A stretch of DNA of 64,000 nucleotides from an uncultured Cellvibrionaceae bacterium (GTDB taxonomy: Bacteria; Pseudomonadota; Gammaproteobacteria; Pseudomonadales; Cellvibrionaceae): assembly GCA_964581625.1 (NCBI GenBank), contig CAZOPE010000013.1, forward strand, positions 1,833 through 65,832, read 5' to 3'. Position 1 is the first letter of the stretch; each line of letters begins with the position of its first letter. The position numbers and the translations under genes are program-made. The notes under the pieces are model-generated. The model ran no database searches, had not been told where the DNA came from, and saw only the letters and a list, made by a program, of their open reading frames with translations. Shown one piece after another: positions 40,156 through 49,241 of the stretch.

Positions 40156-42681
40156 GTGTTATCAAATACTAACAAGACTATTCCATCCGCCGCGTCCACC
40201 CGTATTCTGGTTGTAAACAGCGACTCGGCGGCACAACAAAAAATCAGGGGTTGTCTGGTATCGTCTGGCTATGGTCAATTCACCATTGTTGATGACGCGC
40301 AAAATGCTCTGCGCTTTTTACGTAGTCATCCCGTCGATTTAATCATTGTTGATATTGATATTCCCGATCTCGATGGCTGGCGGCTGTCACGACTTATCCG
40401 TAGCGGCATTCTCAAATGCCGATCTGACCTTCCGATTATTATTCTCGCTAAAACCTGGTGTGAACGTATTGCCGAGGTCACAGCGCGTGAATACGGCATC
40501 AACTATTTGCTTCCGCTCAACCACCTGAGCAATTTGACAGAGATTATTCAGAACCTTACCCAGCAAACCAGCCAAGAACCGCCGAAACCACGTTTATTGG
40601 TGGTTGAAGATTCACCGGACACCTCTGATTTAATTCAACGTGTACTCACCACACATTTCGACATAGAAGTCGCTGCCGATGGCGCATTGGGTTTAGCCAT
40701 TTGGCAGGAAAAACGCCACGATTTGGTGTTGCTAGATGTTGCCTTACCCACCATGAACGGCCACGATATCTTGCTTGAAATCACCCGTATTGATCCCAGC
40801 CAACCCGTGGTGATCATGACAGCTCACGCGTCTATTGAGCATGCAGAAGAATTAATGCTTTCTGGTGCGGTAGATTTTCTACCCAAACCTTTCCGCGCCG
40901 AACAACTGCGCAAAGTATGCGACATTGCAATTCATCGCGAAGATTACCTCGTCAGTAACGCACAATTTGCTGAACGCGTAAAAACACTCGAAGCGCGTGA
41001 GCGGGAGTTTCGTCACCTCTACGAAAGTCATCATCAATTGTTGGATGATCTTCAATCGGTTGTGATGGAGCTAGATGAAGATTTAAACATTGCATTTTTG
41101 AACCGCACATGGGAAACCTTAATGGGGTTCCCCATCGAAGACTCTATTGGTCGTCCGTTCGAGGACTTCATCTCACCGGAAGATGCAAGTCAATTTGCCA
41201 ACCTCAAAGAACACATTACGGCGGCAATTCACGAAAAGAAAACCAGTACCGAAATTGAACTTTGCTTGCGCGACGTAAATCACCAAAAGATTTGGACGCA
41301 GCTGAAAATTAGCCACTCCACCCGCAGCGAAGAGTTTTCAACACTCACCGTATGCATGGATAACATTACCGAACGGCGCAAATCGCAAGAACAATTGCAG
41401 TATCTAGCGATGCACGATTCTTTAACGGGTTTATATAATCGCCACCATTTCGAATTAACGCTAGAGCAACTTTCAAAAGATGCTGCACGCACCAAGCGGC
41501 ACCATGGCTTGGTGTATTTGGATCTCGATCACTTTAAAGTGATTAACGATACTTTCGGCCACCAAAAAGGCGACGAAGTTCTGCGCGAAATGTCCGCTAT
41601 GTTAGCGCGCCGTGTACGCAAGCCAGACATTTTGTGTCGCCTTGGCGGAGATGAATTTGCTGTGCTGTTGCGTAATGTAACTGCACAAAGCGCGCAAGAT
41701 TTTGCGCGCGAGATTCAAAAGACAATTGGCGAATTCAGTTTTCAGTTACAAGAACAGCGAATCAACTTAGGTTGCAGTATTGGCGTAACGGTTATTGACG
41801 GCAGTGCGCATACCGCTGAAGAACATTTTATGCGCGCCGACATTGCACTCTATGTCGCCAAAGGCCGCGGCCGCAACCTCATTCATATGTACGATGCAAA
41901 AGACAACGAAAGTGATGAGTTACGCTTGCGTATTAACGTCTCACAAAAAATTCGTAAAGCAATTTCAGAAGATAGGATGGTGCTTTACTTCCAACCGATT
42001 TATGACGTTAACAAAGATAAAATTTCTTACTACGAGTCACTTATTCGCTTACGCGAACCTGACGGCACTATTGTAGGCCCTGCCGAATTTATTCCTGCAC
42101 TGGAAGCCGCTGGTGAAATGCATTTGTTGGACCGTTGGATCATTAAATTAGCGACGCGCACGCTCAAAGATCATCCAGAACTTAACCACATTGCCATCAA
42201 CCTATCCGCTCAAGCGTTTAAAGATGAAACCTTGGTTCCGACTATTTTGGAGAGTTTAAAAAATACCGGTGTAAATGCTAAAAGACTCACGTTCGAACTC
42301 ACCGAGAGTGCAAGTCTGTTTAACTTAGCTATTACGCAGCGTGTAATTGCAGAATTGCACCTTCTAGGTTGCAGCTTCTCTGTAGATGACTTTGGCTCTG
42401 GCTTTAGCAGCTTCGCTTACCTAAAAGATTTACCCGCCGACTACATCAAACTCGATGGCTCATTTATCCAAAACCTTCACAAAGACAGCATTGACCAAGC
42501 ACTGGTAAAAGCGATGATCCAAGTGATTCAGGCGCTCGGCAAAAAAGCGGTTGCTGAATATGTGGAGAACGAACAGATATTGGATATTTTGAAAAAAATG
42601 GGGATAGATTTTGTTCAAGGCTACCACATAGGCCGCCCTATTCCTGTGGAAAAAATCCTCGCTAAAAAAACAATGGCCTAA
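40156..42681 (+). CDS. REC-REC-PAS-GGDEF-EAL c-di-GMP enzyme
   Basis: Two receivers (DLIIVDID, DLVLLDVA), PAS (AFLNRTWETLMG), AMHDSLTGLYNR, RLGGDEF, YESLIRL, DDFGSGFSS. Confidence 0.92.
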   Translation: MLSNTNKTIPSAASTRILVVNSDSAAQQKIRGCLVSSGYGQFTIVDDAQNALRFLRSHPVDLIIVDIDIPDLDGWRLSRLIRSGILKCRSDLPIIILAKTWCERIAEVTAREYGINYLLPLNHLSNLTEIIQNLTQQTSQEPPKPRLLVVEDSPDTSDLIQRVLTTHFDIEVAADGALGLAIWQEKRHDLVLLDVALPTMNGHDILLEITRIDPSQPVVIMTAHASIEHAEELMLSGAVDFLPKPFRAEQLRKVCDIAIHREDYLVSNAQFAERVKTLEAREREFRHLYESHHQLLDDLQSVVMELDEDLNIAFLNRTWETLMGFPIEDSIGRPFEDFISPEDASQFANLKEHITAAIHEKKTSTEIELCLRDVNHQKIWTQLKISHSTRSEEFSTLTVCMDNITERRKSQEQLQYLAMHDSLTGLYNRHHFELTLEQLSKDAARTKRHHGLVYLDLDHFKVINDTFGHQKGDEVLREMSAMLARRVRKPDILCRLGGDEFAVLLRNVTAQSAQDFAREIQKTIGEFSFQLQEQRINLGCSIGVTVIDGSAHTAEEHFMRADIALYVAKGRGRNLIHMYDAKDNESDELRLRINVSQKIRKAISEDRMVLYFQPIYDVNKDKISYYESLIRLREPDGTIVGPAEFIPALEAAGEMHLLDRWIIKLATRTLKDHPELNHIAINLSAQAFKDETLVPTILESLKNTGVNAKRLTFELTESASLFNLAITQRVIAELHLLGCSFSVDDFGSGFSSFAYLKDLPADYIKLDGSFIQNLHKDSIDQALVKAMIQVIQALGKKAVAEYVENEQILDILKKMGIDFVQGYHIGRPIPVEKILAKKTMA

Positions 42682-42705
42682 CAGGAAACACCCATTAGGC
42701 CATTG
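42671..42705. terminator. Inverted repeat at the convergent junction
   Basis: CAATGGCCTAA / TTAGGCCATTG 11-bp stem overlapping the EAL stop codon. Confidence 0.55.
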
Positions 42706-42734
42706 TAATCAACGCTAAAAATAAACATTCCAAA

Positions 42735-43589
42735 TTAATCTGGCACAGCGCGCAGCGCAGGGCCTTGGTAATCTATATCTTCACAGCGAAGGGGTAAGAA
42801 CGTATTGGGTGGTTGGGCGAATGTGTCCAAATAACAGGCTGTCACACCGCTCGCCACAGCCATGGAAAACATTTGATATACCTCCTGCCCACAAAAGTCA
42901 TAGTCCGAGAGAAATGCAGCGACATATCCATTTATGTTCATTCGTTCGTCGTACTTTTCAAGCAGTACTTTTTCTATCTCATATGCCAAAGCCAAATGCC
43001 TTCCAGCAGATAAATTTAATGACTTGCTAACTCGCTCCATGGCTTCAATTCGCTCATCACCTTTAGCAATTGGACGGATGTAACCAACAATCATAGGCTT
43101 TCCTCCGCGAGAGGATACACTTTTTAAAACATCTTCTACAGACATCCCACTATCAATTTGCTTTAACGCAGCTTGAATAAATCGCATTCCTTCAACGATA
43201 GGAAATATCCCGTAGAAACGAGAGTCGGCGGCGAGCGCTCCCAATGCTGTTGCCGCCATGGCAGATGCACGGGCAGTTCCCGCCAAAGCTCCTATTTGAT
43301 TACACCAGATTCGAGAATCTGGCCAACTAAGACAACCGTATATACCTTCAACCCAAGCGGCCAAATTTTTATCTATCAATTTTCCCGTCGCGTTTAGGAC
43401 GACGATCTGCATATAGGTTTTTTCTCCGACCAACTCTTCCAACATGGAATAGCCATGACTGTACACAGCTTTACCAGGAAACCAGCCACCGGTGTTGCTA
43501 ATAATCTTCCCTCTGCGTTGGTCCAACTTGGCGACAGAATCCATGTCGCTAAAAGTATTTTTATCGTTCGATAACATAGTTTTCATCAC
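42735..43589 (-). CDS. Citrate-synthase/citryl-CoA-lyase-fold protein, non-canonical (B)
   Basis: HGYSMLEELVG, MIVGYIRPIAKGDERI, MNINGYVAAFL align with the CS small-domain motifs. Confidence 0.7.
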   Translation of the reverse strand: MMKTMLSNDKNTFSDMDSVAKLDQRRGKIISNTGGWFPGKAVYSHGYSMLEELVGEKTYMQIVVLNATGKLIDKNLAAWVEGIYGCLSWPDSRIWCNQIGALAGTARASAMAATALGALAADSRFYGIFPIVEGMRFIQAALKQIDSGMSVEDVLKSVSSRGGKPMIVGYIRPIAKGDERIEAMERVSKSLNLSAGRHLALAYEIEKVLLEKYDERMNINGYVAAFLSDYDFCGQEVYQMFSMAVASGVTACYLDTFAQPPNTFLPLRCEDIDYQGPALRAVPD

Positions 43590-44385
43590 TCACAAAGGGC
43601 ATAGCCGTAATAGGTTTATTGGCAACTTCCAAACCGTGAGCCACTAACCCTGGGGCACCAAGCAATTGAAATACAGATGCACCCATACGCGCATGAAAAC
43701 CCAAGTCGGACAATACCGCCGCCACTACTCCCGTCAACAACCACCCGCTACCAGTCTGTTGCAGCTGCTTACTAAGTTGACACCCCCAACGTAAGGCTTT
43801 ACCGGCACCCTCATGTTTTACCAAACGATTTGCAAGCTCAATGGCCATCAATTCTAAGCCACCATTACGGCAACCGAAGCCCGGGGTAAGAGTACTCTCT
43901 TGAGTCAAGTTTTGTGCCTCAGGGGAGTGCCGCAATATTTGCGCAACTTTAGCGGCATCGGAATCTTGATGCTTCCGCAGAAAACGCATGGCATCTTCAA
44001 TTTCACCAGCGCCCATGAAACTTCCACCTAAGACGGCAGATGCTATCGGCAAAATATGCACAGATTCCGTTTTACCAATCCCCGCATTCATTGCAGCCCG
44101 AGTTGCCGGATGTCGAGGCCCTGGATTAATCATCGCAACCATTAATTGTTGCAATAATCCAGATTCCGCCGCGTTAGGTAACTCGCCACGAAACAGTAAA
44201 TAAAACATGTCCGAGTAGCTACGTTTTTCCATTAGCTCAAATAGTTCATAGCCATGGCATAGTGCGGAAGCAGTTATGTAGGGGTTTTCATCGCTAGGTA
44301 ACTCTCGCCAAATACGTGTTGCTGTTCGCGTTACAAAAGGTTCGTTGCGACTACGCACTTTACCCGGCTTGGTTTCTTCACTCAT
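43561..44385 (-). CDS. Citrate-synthase/citryl-CoA-lyase-fold protein, non-canonical (A)
   Basis: CHGYELFELM, YLLFRGELP, INPGPRHPATRAA, TPGFGCR, FQLLGAPGLVAH. Confidence 0.72.
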   Translation of the reverse strand: MSEETKPGKVRSRNEPFVTRTATRIWRELPSDENPYITASALCHGYELFELMEKRSYSDMFYLLFRGELPNAAESGLLQQLMVAMINPGPRHPATRAAMNAGIGKTESVHILPIASAVLGGSFMGAGEIEDAMRFLRKHQDSDAAKVAQILRHSPEAQNLTQESTLTPGFGCRNGGLELMAIELANRLVKHEGAGKALRWGCQLSKQLQQTGSGWLLTGVVAAVLSDLGFHARMGASVFQLLGAPGLVAHGLEVANKPITAMPFVSDENYVIER

Positions 44386-46922: not shown

Positions 46923-49241
46923 TTATTTGGTCGGAACCAAACGCTGCACGGTTTGCTTTAAAGTCTCACGTTTGATCGGTTTGGTTAAATATTCTTCTGC
47001 TTTTAGGCGGTTTTCAAGTTTGCTATCATCCGTCATCGAAATAATAATAACCGGAATATCTTTTAACACTGGGTCTTCTTTTATTTGTTCAAATAATTGC
47101 CATCCCTTTTTATCCTGCAACAGCAAGTCCAAGGTGATAAGTTGCGGTTTTATTTTCTTCAGCAAACTCAGACCAGATTCCGCGTCATAGGCGGTATGCA
47201 CTAAATAACCGTCACCACGCATAGTACGCGCCATAACATCTAAAAAAGCGGGGTCATCATCAATCATTACGATATGCTTGCCGTTCAATTCCGACGTTTT
47301 TTCGACTTCTTGCGCTTCCTGTTCATTTTCCGCATCGTTTTGACCGAAGCTTGCGTCGGGATCTATAGGCAAAGGAATATCCACAATAAAAGTAGAGCCT
47401 TTACCTAATTGGCTTTCTACTTCAATAGTGCCGCCCATTAACTCGCAAAGCTGGCGCGTAATAGATAACCCCAAACCGCTACCCTGAAATTTCCGCGTGG
47501 TGCTGCTGTCAGCTTGCCGGAAAGGATCGAAGATGTGTTGTTGTTGCTCTGGAGAAATACCGATTCCCGTATCGCTCACGGTAATGTAGATACGATTCGG
47601 CTCGTGATGCGCCTGTAAAGTTACAATCCCACCCGGAGAAAACTTACTCGCATTCCCGAGAAGGTTAATCATCATGTGCAATAATTTTTCAGGATCTGCT
47701 ACCGGCAAAGTGGCACCGTCGTTTACATCAAGCTTTAACTGGGTAGAGTTTTTCTCGAGTAGAGGCTTCACGGTGCCAACAGCGTCGTCCACCAAACTGG
47801 AGAGTTTTACGTCGGTTAGATCCAAACGCATGCGACCAGATTCAATTTTTGCCAAATCCAATACACCGTTAATGAGTTTTAACAAACGCTCGGAATTATT
47901 GATGACCCGAGAAAGATCTTTTATATGAACTTGATCGTCGCTCAACTTTAAATCTTCAATCACCACTTCGGTATAGCCAATAATCGCTTGTAAAGGTGTA
48001 CGTAATTCATGGCTCATAAGGGACAAAAATTCGCCCTTGGCTTGACTTGCATCCTCAGCTTTGCGTTTTGCAATGGCGAGACGATCACGAGCAAACTGCA
48101 AATCCTGCGCGTGAGCAGCCAGCCGCTGGTTATCGCGTTTTTTGGTGTTGTATGCAAACCATACAGTGATTACTAACGCCAAACCAAGAATTACAAGACC
48201 CCACGCATACATGAGCGCCTTTTTCTGGATGCCGACCGTTTCATCCAAGCTGGCAATGGCATCTTTTTGTTTTTTGAGCTCAACTTCCTGATTCTTAATG
48301 GTCCAATCCAATTCAAGTACACGTTTTTCGCGCGCATCAATTTCACGAACAATTTTGGTCAATTCTTGCTGCTGAGTGTTCAGTTCTTTTGTTCGCTGCT
48401 CCACTTCATTTACCAAGGTCAAGCGCTCCTGCTTGCCTTTTTCCAGCTGTTCATTTTGTGCAGCGATCAAAGCGTCACTTTTCTGAATATCCTTATTTAA
48501 ATCGGACATTTGCTTTTCTAGGCGCGCCGTTAAGGCTTCTTGGTTTTGAATATTTGCTGTCAAATCGGCAAGGGTCTTTTCACGTATTTGCATTTGTTTT
48601 TGCAAATTCACTAATGATGTTTGCCCTTCACGGAATAATTTAGCCACATCAATTTCTGTACCACCGTTTAATATCAATTCTGGGAGCGGCTTCAAACCCT
48701 GATTAATGAGATTTGATTTATTCACTTCAAACCGCAGGCGATCATTTGCTGCAGATAACAGATTAATCATCACAAGTTGTTTGTTGGAAAAATCATAAGT
48801 CACCAAGAGTACTGGCTTACCCTCAACAGCGCTGTATATATCTGTGAGGGTTTGATTGCTAGCATCTTCAACGTATACCAACTGATATTTCCCTAGGGCT
48901 TTTAGTGTGCTCACGTTCGAGACGGTAATGGGTAAATTTCTGACGGTTACTTTTTCAGCTAGTAATTGCAACTCTGAATAGATGGGCGTTTTTTCGGCAC
49001 CGTATACCGCAATATCAAAAGAGTTGATGCCCGATTCATTCGGCCACTCGATATTTTTGGCAAAGTTGTAAATATAAGATGCGGTAATGCGTTGCTTATT
49101 GGCTTGCTGCGCTTGGGCAGAGCTTTCAATGCTCAAGAAAAATAATGCTAGGAGCCAAGCTAGGTAGCGAGAAATGTATGGAGAAGAAAGAATAAAACCC
49201 GAGCAGCGCGAATAATAATTATGCATGTGGCTTTTATACAT
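46923..49241 (-). CDS. Hybrid histidine kinase: YfiR/DUF4154 periplasmic domain, coiled coil, TM, HisKA-HATPase, REC
   Basis: SYIYNFAKNIEWP, RLRFEVNK, LMSHELRTPL, NASKF, DTGIGI, GSGLGL, LITLDLLL. Confidence 0.9.
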   Translation of the reverse strand: MYKSHMHNYYSRCSGFILSSPYISRYLAWLLALFFLSIESSAQAQQANKQRITASYIYNFAKNIEWPNESGINSFDIAVYGAEKTPIYSELQLLAEKVTVRNLPITVSNVSTLKALGKYQLVYVEDASNQTLTDIYSAVEGKPVLLVTYDFSNKQLVMINLLSAANDRLRFEVNKSNLINQGLKPLPELILNGGTEIDVAKLFREGQTSLVNLQKQMQIREKTLADLTANIQNQEALTARLEKQMSDLNKDIQKSDALIAAQNEQLEKGKQERLTLVNEVEQRTKELNTQQQELTKIVREIDAREKRVLELDWTIKNQEVELKKQKDAIASLDETVGIQKKALMYAWGLVILGLALVITVWFAYNTKKRDNQRLAAHAQDLQFARDRLAIAKRKAEDASQAKGEFLSLMSHELRTPLQAIIGYTEVVIEDLKLSDDQVHIKDLSRVINNSERLLKLINGVLDLAKIESGRMRLDLTDVKLSSLVDDAVGTVKPLLEKNSTQLKLDVNDGATLPVADPEKLLHMMINLLGNASKFSPGGIVTLQAHHEPNRIYITVSDTGIGISPEQQQHIFDPFRQADSSTTRKFQGSGLGLSITRQLCELMGGTIEVESQLGKGSTFIVDIPLPIDPDASFGQNDAENEQEAQEVEKTSELNGKHIVMIDDDPAFLDVMARTMRGDGYLVHTAYDAESGLSLLKKIKPQLITLDLLLQDKKGWQLFEQIKEDPVLKDIPVIIISMTDDSKLENRLKAEEYLTKPIKRETLKQTVQRLVPTK

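Follow-up and report, generated by a model that had tools for sequence, protein, structure and literature searches.

Here, we studied two adjacent genes coding for proteins of the citrate-synthase (CS) fold, referred to as A and B, in a stretch of 64,000 nucleotides (the window) from contig CAZOPE010000013.1 of an uncultured Cellvibrionaceae bacterium (assembly GCA_964581625.1). An earlier note, made from the sequence of the window, had described them as tandem CS-fold proteins in which the canonical catalytic His and Asp are replaced. Both open reading frames (ORFs) are indeed present on the minus strand, with the motifs that the note had quoted, and our analysis points to A and B as marking an uncharacterised small-molecule pathway rather than a broken citrate synthase. 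The two proteins might form a heteromer with a rebuilt ligand pocket that, together with a thiamine diphosphate (ThDP)-dependent carboligase, makes a molecule sensed through a TonB-dependent receptor, a YfiR-type kinase, and cyclic di-GMP (c-di-GMP) genes, a reading that we consider evenly balanced between right and wrong. The novelty lies in a familiar fold whose active site has been replaced and that has entered a new partnership; nothing in the literature searched describes the pair or the module.

The assignment to the fold came from profile and structure comparisons. Pfam gave A 23.8 bits on Citrate_synt (PF00285), under the 27-bit gathering score, and returned no match for B. On the NCBIfam citryl-CoA lyase (CCL), A reached 85.5 bits and B 53.6 bits against a cut-off of 245 (the PRK06224 CCL model cut-offs are 193 to 261 bits). 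Using HMMER, A matched the CCL of Hydrogenobacter thermophilus (6hxp) with an E value of 1e-17 as a single sequence and of 1e-33 with its family profile, and the family profile of B matched the same protein across its full length (E value of 1.4e-16). When the two family alignments (67 A-type sequences in A1 and 41 B-type sequences in A2) were compared by hhalign, they aligned at 99.4% with an E value of 1e-21 and 17% identity, and all the substituted motifs were in register. The AlphaFold2 model of B (predicted local distance difference test [pLDDT], 88.9; predicted template modelling score [pTM], 0.81) retrieved 6hxp on top in Foldseek (template modelling scores of 0.71/0.78), followed by the CCL modules of ATP-citrate lyase, with full-length citrate synthases further down. 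A and B therefore share the short, CCL form of the CS fold (the ca. 260- to 280-aa version found in 6hxp and in the ATP-citrate lyase modules 6hxn, 6qcl, 6hxk, and 6z2h) and belong to the superfamily at the level of fold. The earlier note had called both proteins full length, which is correct with respect to CCL (ca. 260 to 270 aa) but not to citrate synthase (ca. 430 aa). Database records of the homologues are labelled only “citrate synthase” or “hypothetical protein.”

To our knowledge, all characterised members of this fold rely on one His/His/Asp machinery to act on an acyl-CoA and oxaloacetate. The corresponding motifs read INPGPRHP, GGSFMGAG, GFGCR, and LLTG in A and WPDSRIW, DSRFYG, GYIR, and NING in B. 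Compared with 6hxp, A has INPG for IDHG, GSFMGA for GSAHGG, PGFGCR for PGYGHR, and LLTG for NVDG, so that His274, His320, and Asp375 (pig citrate synthase numbering) correspond to M124, C172, and T218. In B, F125, beside an invariant Y126, is aligned with the His of GSAHGG; that of GYGHR has been deleted or replaced (G169-Y170-I171-R172-P173); and the Asp of NVDG aligns to a variable position, occupied here by N220 and preceded by an invariant N218. Neither the A nor the B family profile has a His or Asp at any of the three catalytic positions. The replacement proposed in the earlier note was thus borne out by the in-register placement of the motifs with HMMER and hhalign, and the profile alignments restored no catalytic His/Asp pair.

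The substrate site has gone the same way. None of the four residues that bind oxaloacetate or citrate (His238, Arg329, Arg401, and Arg421') is kept in A. In B, only Arg329 (R180) and Arg421' (R280) have equivalents, with P90 or S92 at the position of His238 and an Ala at that of Arg401. We take R280 to be the counterpart of the arginine that citrate synthase donates to the partner subunit. As an internal control for the triad, we used the canonical citrate synthase of the same genome, a housekeeping protein of 426 aa in which ADHE, SHGGAN, GFGHRVYKNFDPR, NVDF, GRAVG, and GRPR are all intact. Because the triad is absent and the scores fall below the curated cut-offs, neither A nor B is predicted to be able to act as a conventional citrate synthase or CCL, in agreement with the earlier note. 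A role as the citrate synthase of the cell was also ruled out, given the canonical gltA-type gene in the genome.

Loss of the triad was not accompanied by decay. Among unsaturated orthologue pairs, the ratio of nonsynonymous to synonymous substitution rates (dN/dS) was 0.09 to 0.12 for A and 0.05 to 0.06 for B, values that indicate strong purifying selection on both and rule out neutral decay of the pair. Both families are large, with ca. 1,000 homologue clusters at 60 to 90% identity for each protein (1,089 for A), and an exhaustive search returned 408 A-related clusters (clustering at 50% identity), 106 of them with E values of <1e-30. The NPGPR that replaces DHG in A is still present in homologues at 30% identity. 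The residues now standing at the catalytic positions (M124, C172, and T218 in A and N220 in B) are variable, and C172 and M124, as well as H92, which A carries in the window, are not conserved across its family.

Conservation has instead settled on other residues of the former active site, mostly in B. Its 19 invariant columns are spread over all five active-site loops of citrate synthase: G34 and G69; P90, R93, W95, and N97 in the former His238 loop; Y126 and G127 in the His274 loop; G169, R172, D178, E179, and R180 in the His320/Arg329 loop; N218 in the Asp375 loop; D229, G248, and C252 in the Arg401 helix; and G276 and R280 at the C terminus, which match the Y..G...R of CCL. The near-invariant residues of A are chiefly Gly, Pro, and Ala, plus E28, N34, R91, and E253. 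Judged by sequence conservation, B is the more constrained subunit of the two. Since A and B share derived features, namely, P-x-x-R in place of H-G-x-x and the loss of the three catalytic positions, the change of function most likely preceded the duplication that gave rise to them.

Citrate synthases and CCLs are dimers whose active sites are completed across the interface. For A and B, we examined the pairing in a same-class sample of 400 genomes, in which A was found in 41 genomes from 34 genera, and in a distant set consisting of 20 kb around A in 38 A-carrying genomes from ca. 30 families of the class, analyzed by tblastn and ORF clustering. The two genes were adjacent in 34 of the 38 distant loci, and overlaps of 4 to 26 nucleotides (nt) between them were also found in close relatives. 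A and B lie in the same reading frame at three loci only. We found four natural A-B fusion proteins (P0256, P0391, P0357, and P0385), and the AlphaFold2 model of P0256 was compact (pLDDT, 80.9; pTM, 0.73), with disorder only in a linker of ca. 30 residues and with both halves matching CCL. The alignment behind this model comprised 40 B sequences together with the four fusions and two pairs read through a TGA. That A and B form a heteromer, putatively a heterodimer, is supported by the adjacency of their genes and their conserved overlap, by the four fusions, and by the compact fusion model. Of the heterodimer advanced in the earlier note, it is therefore the joint action of A and B that we find very probable; the alternative given there, a sensor that binds CoA esters, is disfavoured as a free-standing function by the genomic context.

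The N terminus of A bears a conserved IW-E....NPF motif (I25, W26, E28, N34, and P35) ahead of the part that aligns to CCL. The same motif is found directly past the linker in P0362, a fusion of A to the ThDP enzyme, and may be a docking or cross-subunit arm. A metagenomic protein, P0358 (411 aa), combines an A-type domain with ca. 130 N-terminal residues (..CCGSHGG..) for which Pfam gave no match.

The most constant companion of the pair is the ThDP enzyme. Against solved structures, it scored 294 bits with BbmA (8x3x), 255 bits with CsmA (8x3z), and 214 bits with the best acetohydroxyacid synthase (AHAS), so that it is nearest to BbmA and CsmA, ahead of AHAS, AlsS, and 2-hydroxyacyl-CoA lyase (HACL). 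Three TPP_enzyme Pfam domains were seen in the orthologous fusion P0362 and in the orthologues at loci L087 and L088. In PMC12395478, BbmA and CsmA (the latter spelt “BpmA”) are given as CybE homologues that make alpha-hydroxy-beta-keto acids, with a citation of Liu et al., Nat Chem 2025. In the furanolide pathway, a ThDP product that decarboxylates spontaneously is passed to a second, acyl-CoA-using enzyme, and CybF, the partner of CybE-type enzymes, resembles ketoacyl-acyl carrier protein synthase III (KASIII) (PMC8777810).

The ThDP gene adjoins A and B in most loci, across ca. 30 families. Three genomes in which it is not next to the pair have an orthologue of 44 to 51% identity elsewhere, and 10 genomes without A and B have only paralogues of 26 to 30% identity; among the genomes compared, ThDP orthologues of 44 to 52% identity were found only in those carrying A and B. 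This distribution identifies the ThDP enzyme as the predicted co-inherited partner of the pair. Two ThDP-A fusions (P0362, with 885 aa, and an open frame of 886 aa in genome G049) suggest a direct hand-over of the product. Fusions were also found between B and a short-chain dehydrogenase/reductase (SDR) (P0393 to P0395), and the locus of P0394 (L088) has otherwise the architecture of the window. At the P0256 locus, the ThDP gene is followed by the A-B fusion, both converging on genes for a histidine kinase, an SDR, and the receptor.

Other genes travel with this core. In 17 close Cellvibrio-type loci, six genes recur, with the YfiR-type kinase, receptor, A, and B converging on the GGDEF-EAL and ThDP genes; the receiver-GGDEF-EAL protein is kept in 13 of these 17 loci and in several distant ones. 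C. fibrivorans (locus L010) is one cultivable Cellvibrio with this gene cluster. In the distant loci, the ThDP, A, B, and receptor genes are mostly adjacent, in the order ThDP>receptor>A>B or ThDP>A>B>receptor>binding protein>kinase. The latter order is that of a clade of 28 to 35% identity, in which a HAMP kinase and, as a protein of its own, an ABC_sub_bind-like periplasmic protein stand in for the YfiR domain. A receptor orthologue (37 to 47% identity) stands beside the pair in ca. 30 of the 38 loci, and a periplasmic sensor and kinase are usually part of the module. In a phylum-wide sample of 401 genomes, B was present in 11, including other classes, and was missing from one genome of the same family, indicating a patchy distribution. 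Across the 38 distant loci, the module lacked a conserved inner-membrane transporter as well as any conserved CoA ligase or CoA transferase. Tailoring genes appear within it in some genomes: SDR genes at three loci (one fused to B), an O-methyltransferase with a small-molecule methyltransferase dimerisation domain, an AsnB-like amidotransferase, and a sulfotransferase. Such genes fit biosynthesis better than catabolism. Since A and B are co-inherited with, or fused to, the ThDP enzyme and travel with the receptor and sensor kinase, their context speaks for one step of a small-molecule pathway rather than for a free-standing CoA-ester sensor.

From these sequence comparisons, we infer the following catalysis, substrate, and signalling role for the module. 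Both the His/His/Asp machinery and the oxaloacetate site would have disappeared in the ancestor of A and B, ahead of the gene duplication, and a different pocket, conserved ever since, would have taken their place. B would supply most of the polar pocket residues (R93, N97, Y126, R172, D178, E179, R180, N218, C252, and R280), and what A retains would be mainly a Gly/Pro scaffold, along with R91, E28, and E253. The heteromer would work with a ThDP carboligase related to the alpha-hydroxy-beta-keto-acid synthases CybE, BbmA, and CsmA and capture its unstable product, a tertiary alpha-hydroxy-carboxylate. We favour this product as the substrate because its central carbon would resemble that of citrate or citryl-CoA and because of the ThDP-A fusions. 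Its conversion might be a decarboxylation, a cleavage, or an acyl transfer, in which a CoA ester possibly takes part, and in some genomes an SDR, O-methyltransferase, or amidotransferase would complete the molecule. The final molecule would act outside the cytoplasm, the dedicated TonB-dependent receptor admitting it to the periplasm, where the YfiR-like domain of the hybrid kinase (elsewhere, the binding protein and kinase) would sense it and pass the signal to the receiver-GGDEF-EAL protein. Sensing in the periplasm is proposed because the receptor and the periplasmic sensor and kinase are conserved and an inner-membrane transporter is not.

Several points weigh against this scheme. The conserved pocket speaks for ligand binding, which is not catalysis, and the gathering of the conserved B residues in a three-dimensional pocket is deduced from their sequence positions. 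The A half of the alignment used for the fusion model has six rows only and gives it shallow support. The module has no conserved exporter, and it would be odd for a self-made small molecule to need a TonB-dependent receptor. The pairing itself is without precedent, given that CybF, the partner of CybE-type enzymes, is KASIII-like and not CS-like (PMC8777810). Synteny within the Cellvibrio-type clade, taken alone, could reflect shared ancestry, and the window itself has neither an SDR gene nor the other tailoring genes. A more daring version, in which the ThDP carboligase and A/B would be a new type of synthase, with a remade active site acting on an alpha-hydroxy-beta-keto-acid substrate and an extracellular signal or chelator of an unknown class, gated by the receptor, sensed by YfiR-type or binding proteins, and controlling c-di-GMP, is put forward tentatively, as something we would rather doubt than assume.

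A and B could instead be a noncatalytic partner that binds a CoA ester or hydroxy acid and tunes the ThDP enzyme, as the small regulatory subunit of AHAS does, a possibility not far from the sensor role raised in the earlier note. All the catalytic residues are lost, the ThDP-A fusions imply physical contact, a conserved pocket is compatible with ligand binding, and we found no AHAS-type small subunit beside the ThDP gene in the window or in the distant loci. Nonetheless, we regard a purely regulatory role as unlikely, since two diverged subunits and 19 invariant positions in B, including Arg, Asp, Glu, Tyr, and Cys, exceed what a regulator usually needs, and the B-SDR fusion is more typical of consecutive enzymes. 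A second possibility is that the module is catabolic, the receptor importing a compound that the ThDP enzyme and A/B would cleave in the cytoplasm, with A/B as a lyase on a hydroxy acid or acyl-CoA. This would accord with the predicted cotranscription of the receptor with A and B, with the lyase activity of the CCL relatives, and with the cleaving members of the ThDP superfamily (benzaldehyde lyase and HACL appeared among the structure-search matches). Catabolism is nevertheless quite improbable, as the nearest relatives of the ThDP enzyme are synthases, a kinase and not a permease accompanies the periplasmic binding-type protein, the accessory genes are of the tailoring type (O-methyltransferase, amidotransferase, and sulfotransferase), and neither an inner-membrane transporter nor a CoA ligase or transferase is conserved. 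That A or B is still a citrate synthase or CCL working through substitute residues, or that they are neutrally drifting pseudogenes, hardly deserves credence: the shared fold and the equivalents of R329, N373, and R421' in B are the sole support, as opposed to catalytic positions without His or Asp in both profiles, substitutes (M124, C172, T218, and N220) that are not conserved themselves, a canonical citrate synthase in the genome, dN/dS values of 0.05 to 0.12, and truly decaying copies elsewhere that show in-frame stops and truncated neighbouring genes.

In order to put the proposed biosynthetic module into perspective, we compared it with known systems. Compared with CCL, B still has R180 as its DPR-type arginine, N218 as the Asn of NVD, and R280 within the C-terminal Y..G...R, but both A and B are devoid of the catalytic His, His, and Asp, and DHG has become NPGPR in A and (W/Y)PDxRxW in B. 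CCL is a homo-oligomer, whereas A and B are two diverged paralogous subunits (22% identity), and their genes lie beside those for a ThDP enzyme and a TonB-dependent receptor rather than for citryl-CoA synthetase. The furanolide pathway (CybE, CybF, and CybC) is similar in handing a ThDP product to a second enzyme, a likeness of logic and not of homology, as CybF is KASIII-like and A and B are of the CS fold. The ThDP enzyme is only moderately close to BbmA (294 bits), and no furanolide product is implied. Neither a KASIII-like furanolide synthase nor an acyl-CoA ligase was found among the window ORFs at 37 to 50 kb or in the annotated or read neighbour clusters of the 38 loci, not all of which were scanned with Pfam.

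AlsS-AlsD-BdhA is a catabolic acetoin/butanediol pathway that likewise has an acetolactate synthase (ALS)-like ThDP enzyme followed by an enzyme acting on an alpha-hydroxy-beta-keto acid, and some modules here also have an SDR reductase. Its middle enzyme, however, is an acetolactate decarboxylase of unrelated fold, it is not known to include receptor or sensor genes, and the ThDP enzyme of the window is nearer to BbmA and CsmA than to AlsS. In ScrABC (Vibrio parahaemolyticus), LuxS/LuxPQ, and CqsA/CqsS, a signal synthase and a periplasmic sensor are encoded together. The module, too, groups cytoplasmic enzymes with an element for periplasmic binding and with a kinase in the membrane or an enzyme of c-di-GMP, and by its genes alone it is compatible with the pattern of synthase, periplasmic binding element, and membrane sensor, with its product as a putative ligand of the sensor. 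A product of acyloin type would, moreover, resemble the alpha-hydroxyketone autoinducers of CqsA/CqsS. None of the three is known to employ a ThDP enzyme, a CS-fold protein, or a TonB-dependent receptor.

The CS fold is among the best-studied enzyme scaffolds, and A and B represent an old, widespread, and strongly selected branch of it that discarded the triad machinery, divided into two specialised subunits, and became tied to a ThDP carboligase. Once their reaction is identified, a textbook fold would gain new chemistry, and an unknown small molecule would probably come to light. Given the outer-membrane receptor, the sensor kinase of the periplasm, and the c-di-GMP enzyme that accompany the pair, surface behaviour may be under the control of this molecule in polysaccharide degraders of the Cellvibrio type and in many other environmental proteobacteria.

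The genes of the locus are listed in Table 1. The receptor gene lies 13 nt upstream of A, and receptor, A, and B are predicted to be one operon closed by the terminator, with B as its final gene because the terminator follows its stop codon so closely. Upstream of the receptor is the kinase, which has a receiver domain and, on its periplasmic side, a YfiR/HmsC-like DUF4154 domain; on the plus strand, the ThDP and GGDEF-EAL genes both converge on B, and the receiver-GGDEF-EAL protein is the probable output of the kinase. The translational coupling that the earlier note had read between A and B is probable from the overlap, although its length depends on the GTG start at 43589, for which no strong Shine-Dalgarno sequence was visible by inspection; an ATG lies 3 bases downstream.

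Table 1 Features of the A/B locus and its neighbours in the window
Feature	Position	Strand	Remarks
ALS-like ThDP enzyme, 598 aa	38222..40018	+	Nearest solved relatives BbmA and CsmA
Two-receiver + PAS + GGDEF + EAL protein	40156..42681	+	NCBIfam matches; convergent with B
Intrinsic terminator (predicted)	42670..42706	-	Stem of 16 bp and T7 tail; 29 nt past the stop of B
CS-fold subunit B	42735..43589	-	ORF of 284 aa; GTG start
A/B overlap	43561..43589	-	29 nt from GTG 43589; 26 nt if ATG 43586
CS-fold subunit A	43561..44385	-	ORF of 274 aa; CCL-like
TonB-dependent receptor, 718 aa	44399..46555	-	Plug and beta-barrel Pfam matches
Hybrid histidine kinase	46923..49241	-	Pfam DUF4154, HisKA, HATPase_c, Response_reg

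The terminator hairpin overlaps the final codons of the convergent GGDEF-EAL gene and could terminate transcription from both sides. A search for a Fur box (19-mer, up to 3 mismatches) gave zero matches across the window, a weak test that offers no hint of iron regulation.

In two genomes, the module decays as a unit. One (G044, locus L057) has an in-frame TAG in A, only residues 134 to 269 of B, and truncated receptor and ThDP genes; in the other (G298, locus L062), A has two TGA and one TAG and the receptor is fragmented, and B and the ThDP enzyme look intact. At two loci, an ORF of 178 to 183 aa lies between the ThDP gene and A (L069:8989-9540 and L073:10577-11113), which by eye resembles a REP-associated/IS200-type tyrosine transposase (..LPDHLHCIW..WQRRFWEH..). 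Finally, eight distant loci have a chemosensory-type gene set directly upstream of the ThDP gene (L062, L065, L078, and L080, with clusters c7, c10, and c11; L069, L073, L075, and L079, with clusters c7 and c12 to c15). By eye, the set consists of a CheR-like methyltransferase with tetratricopeptide repeats, proteins resembling methyl-accepting chemotaxis proteins, a CheB-like protein, and a receiver-phosphatase-kinase-like protein, which hints at a second signalling output.

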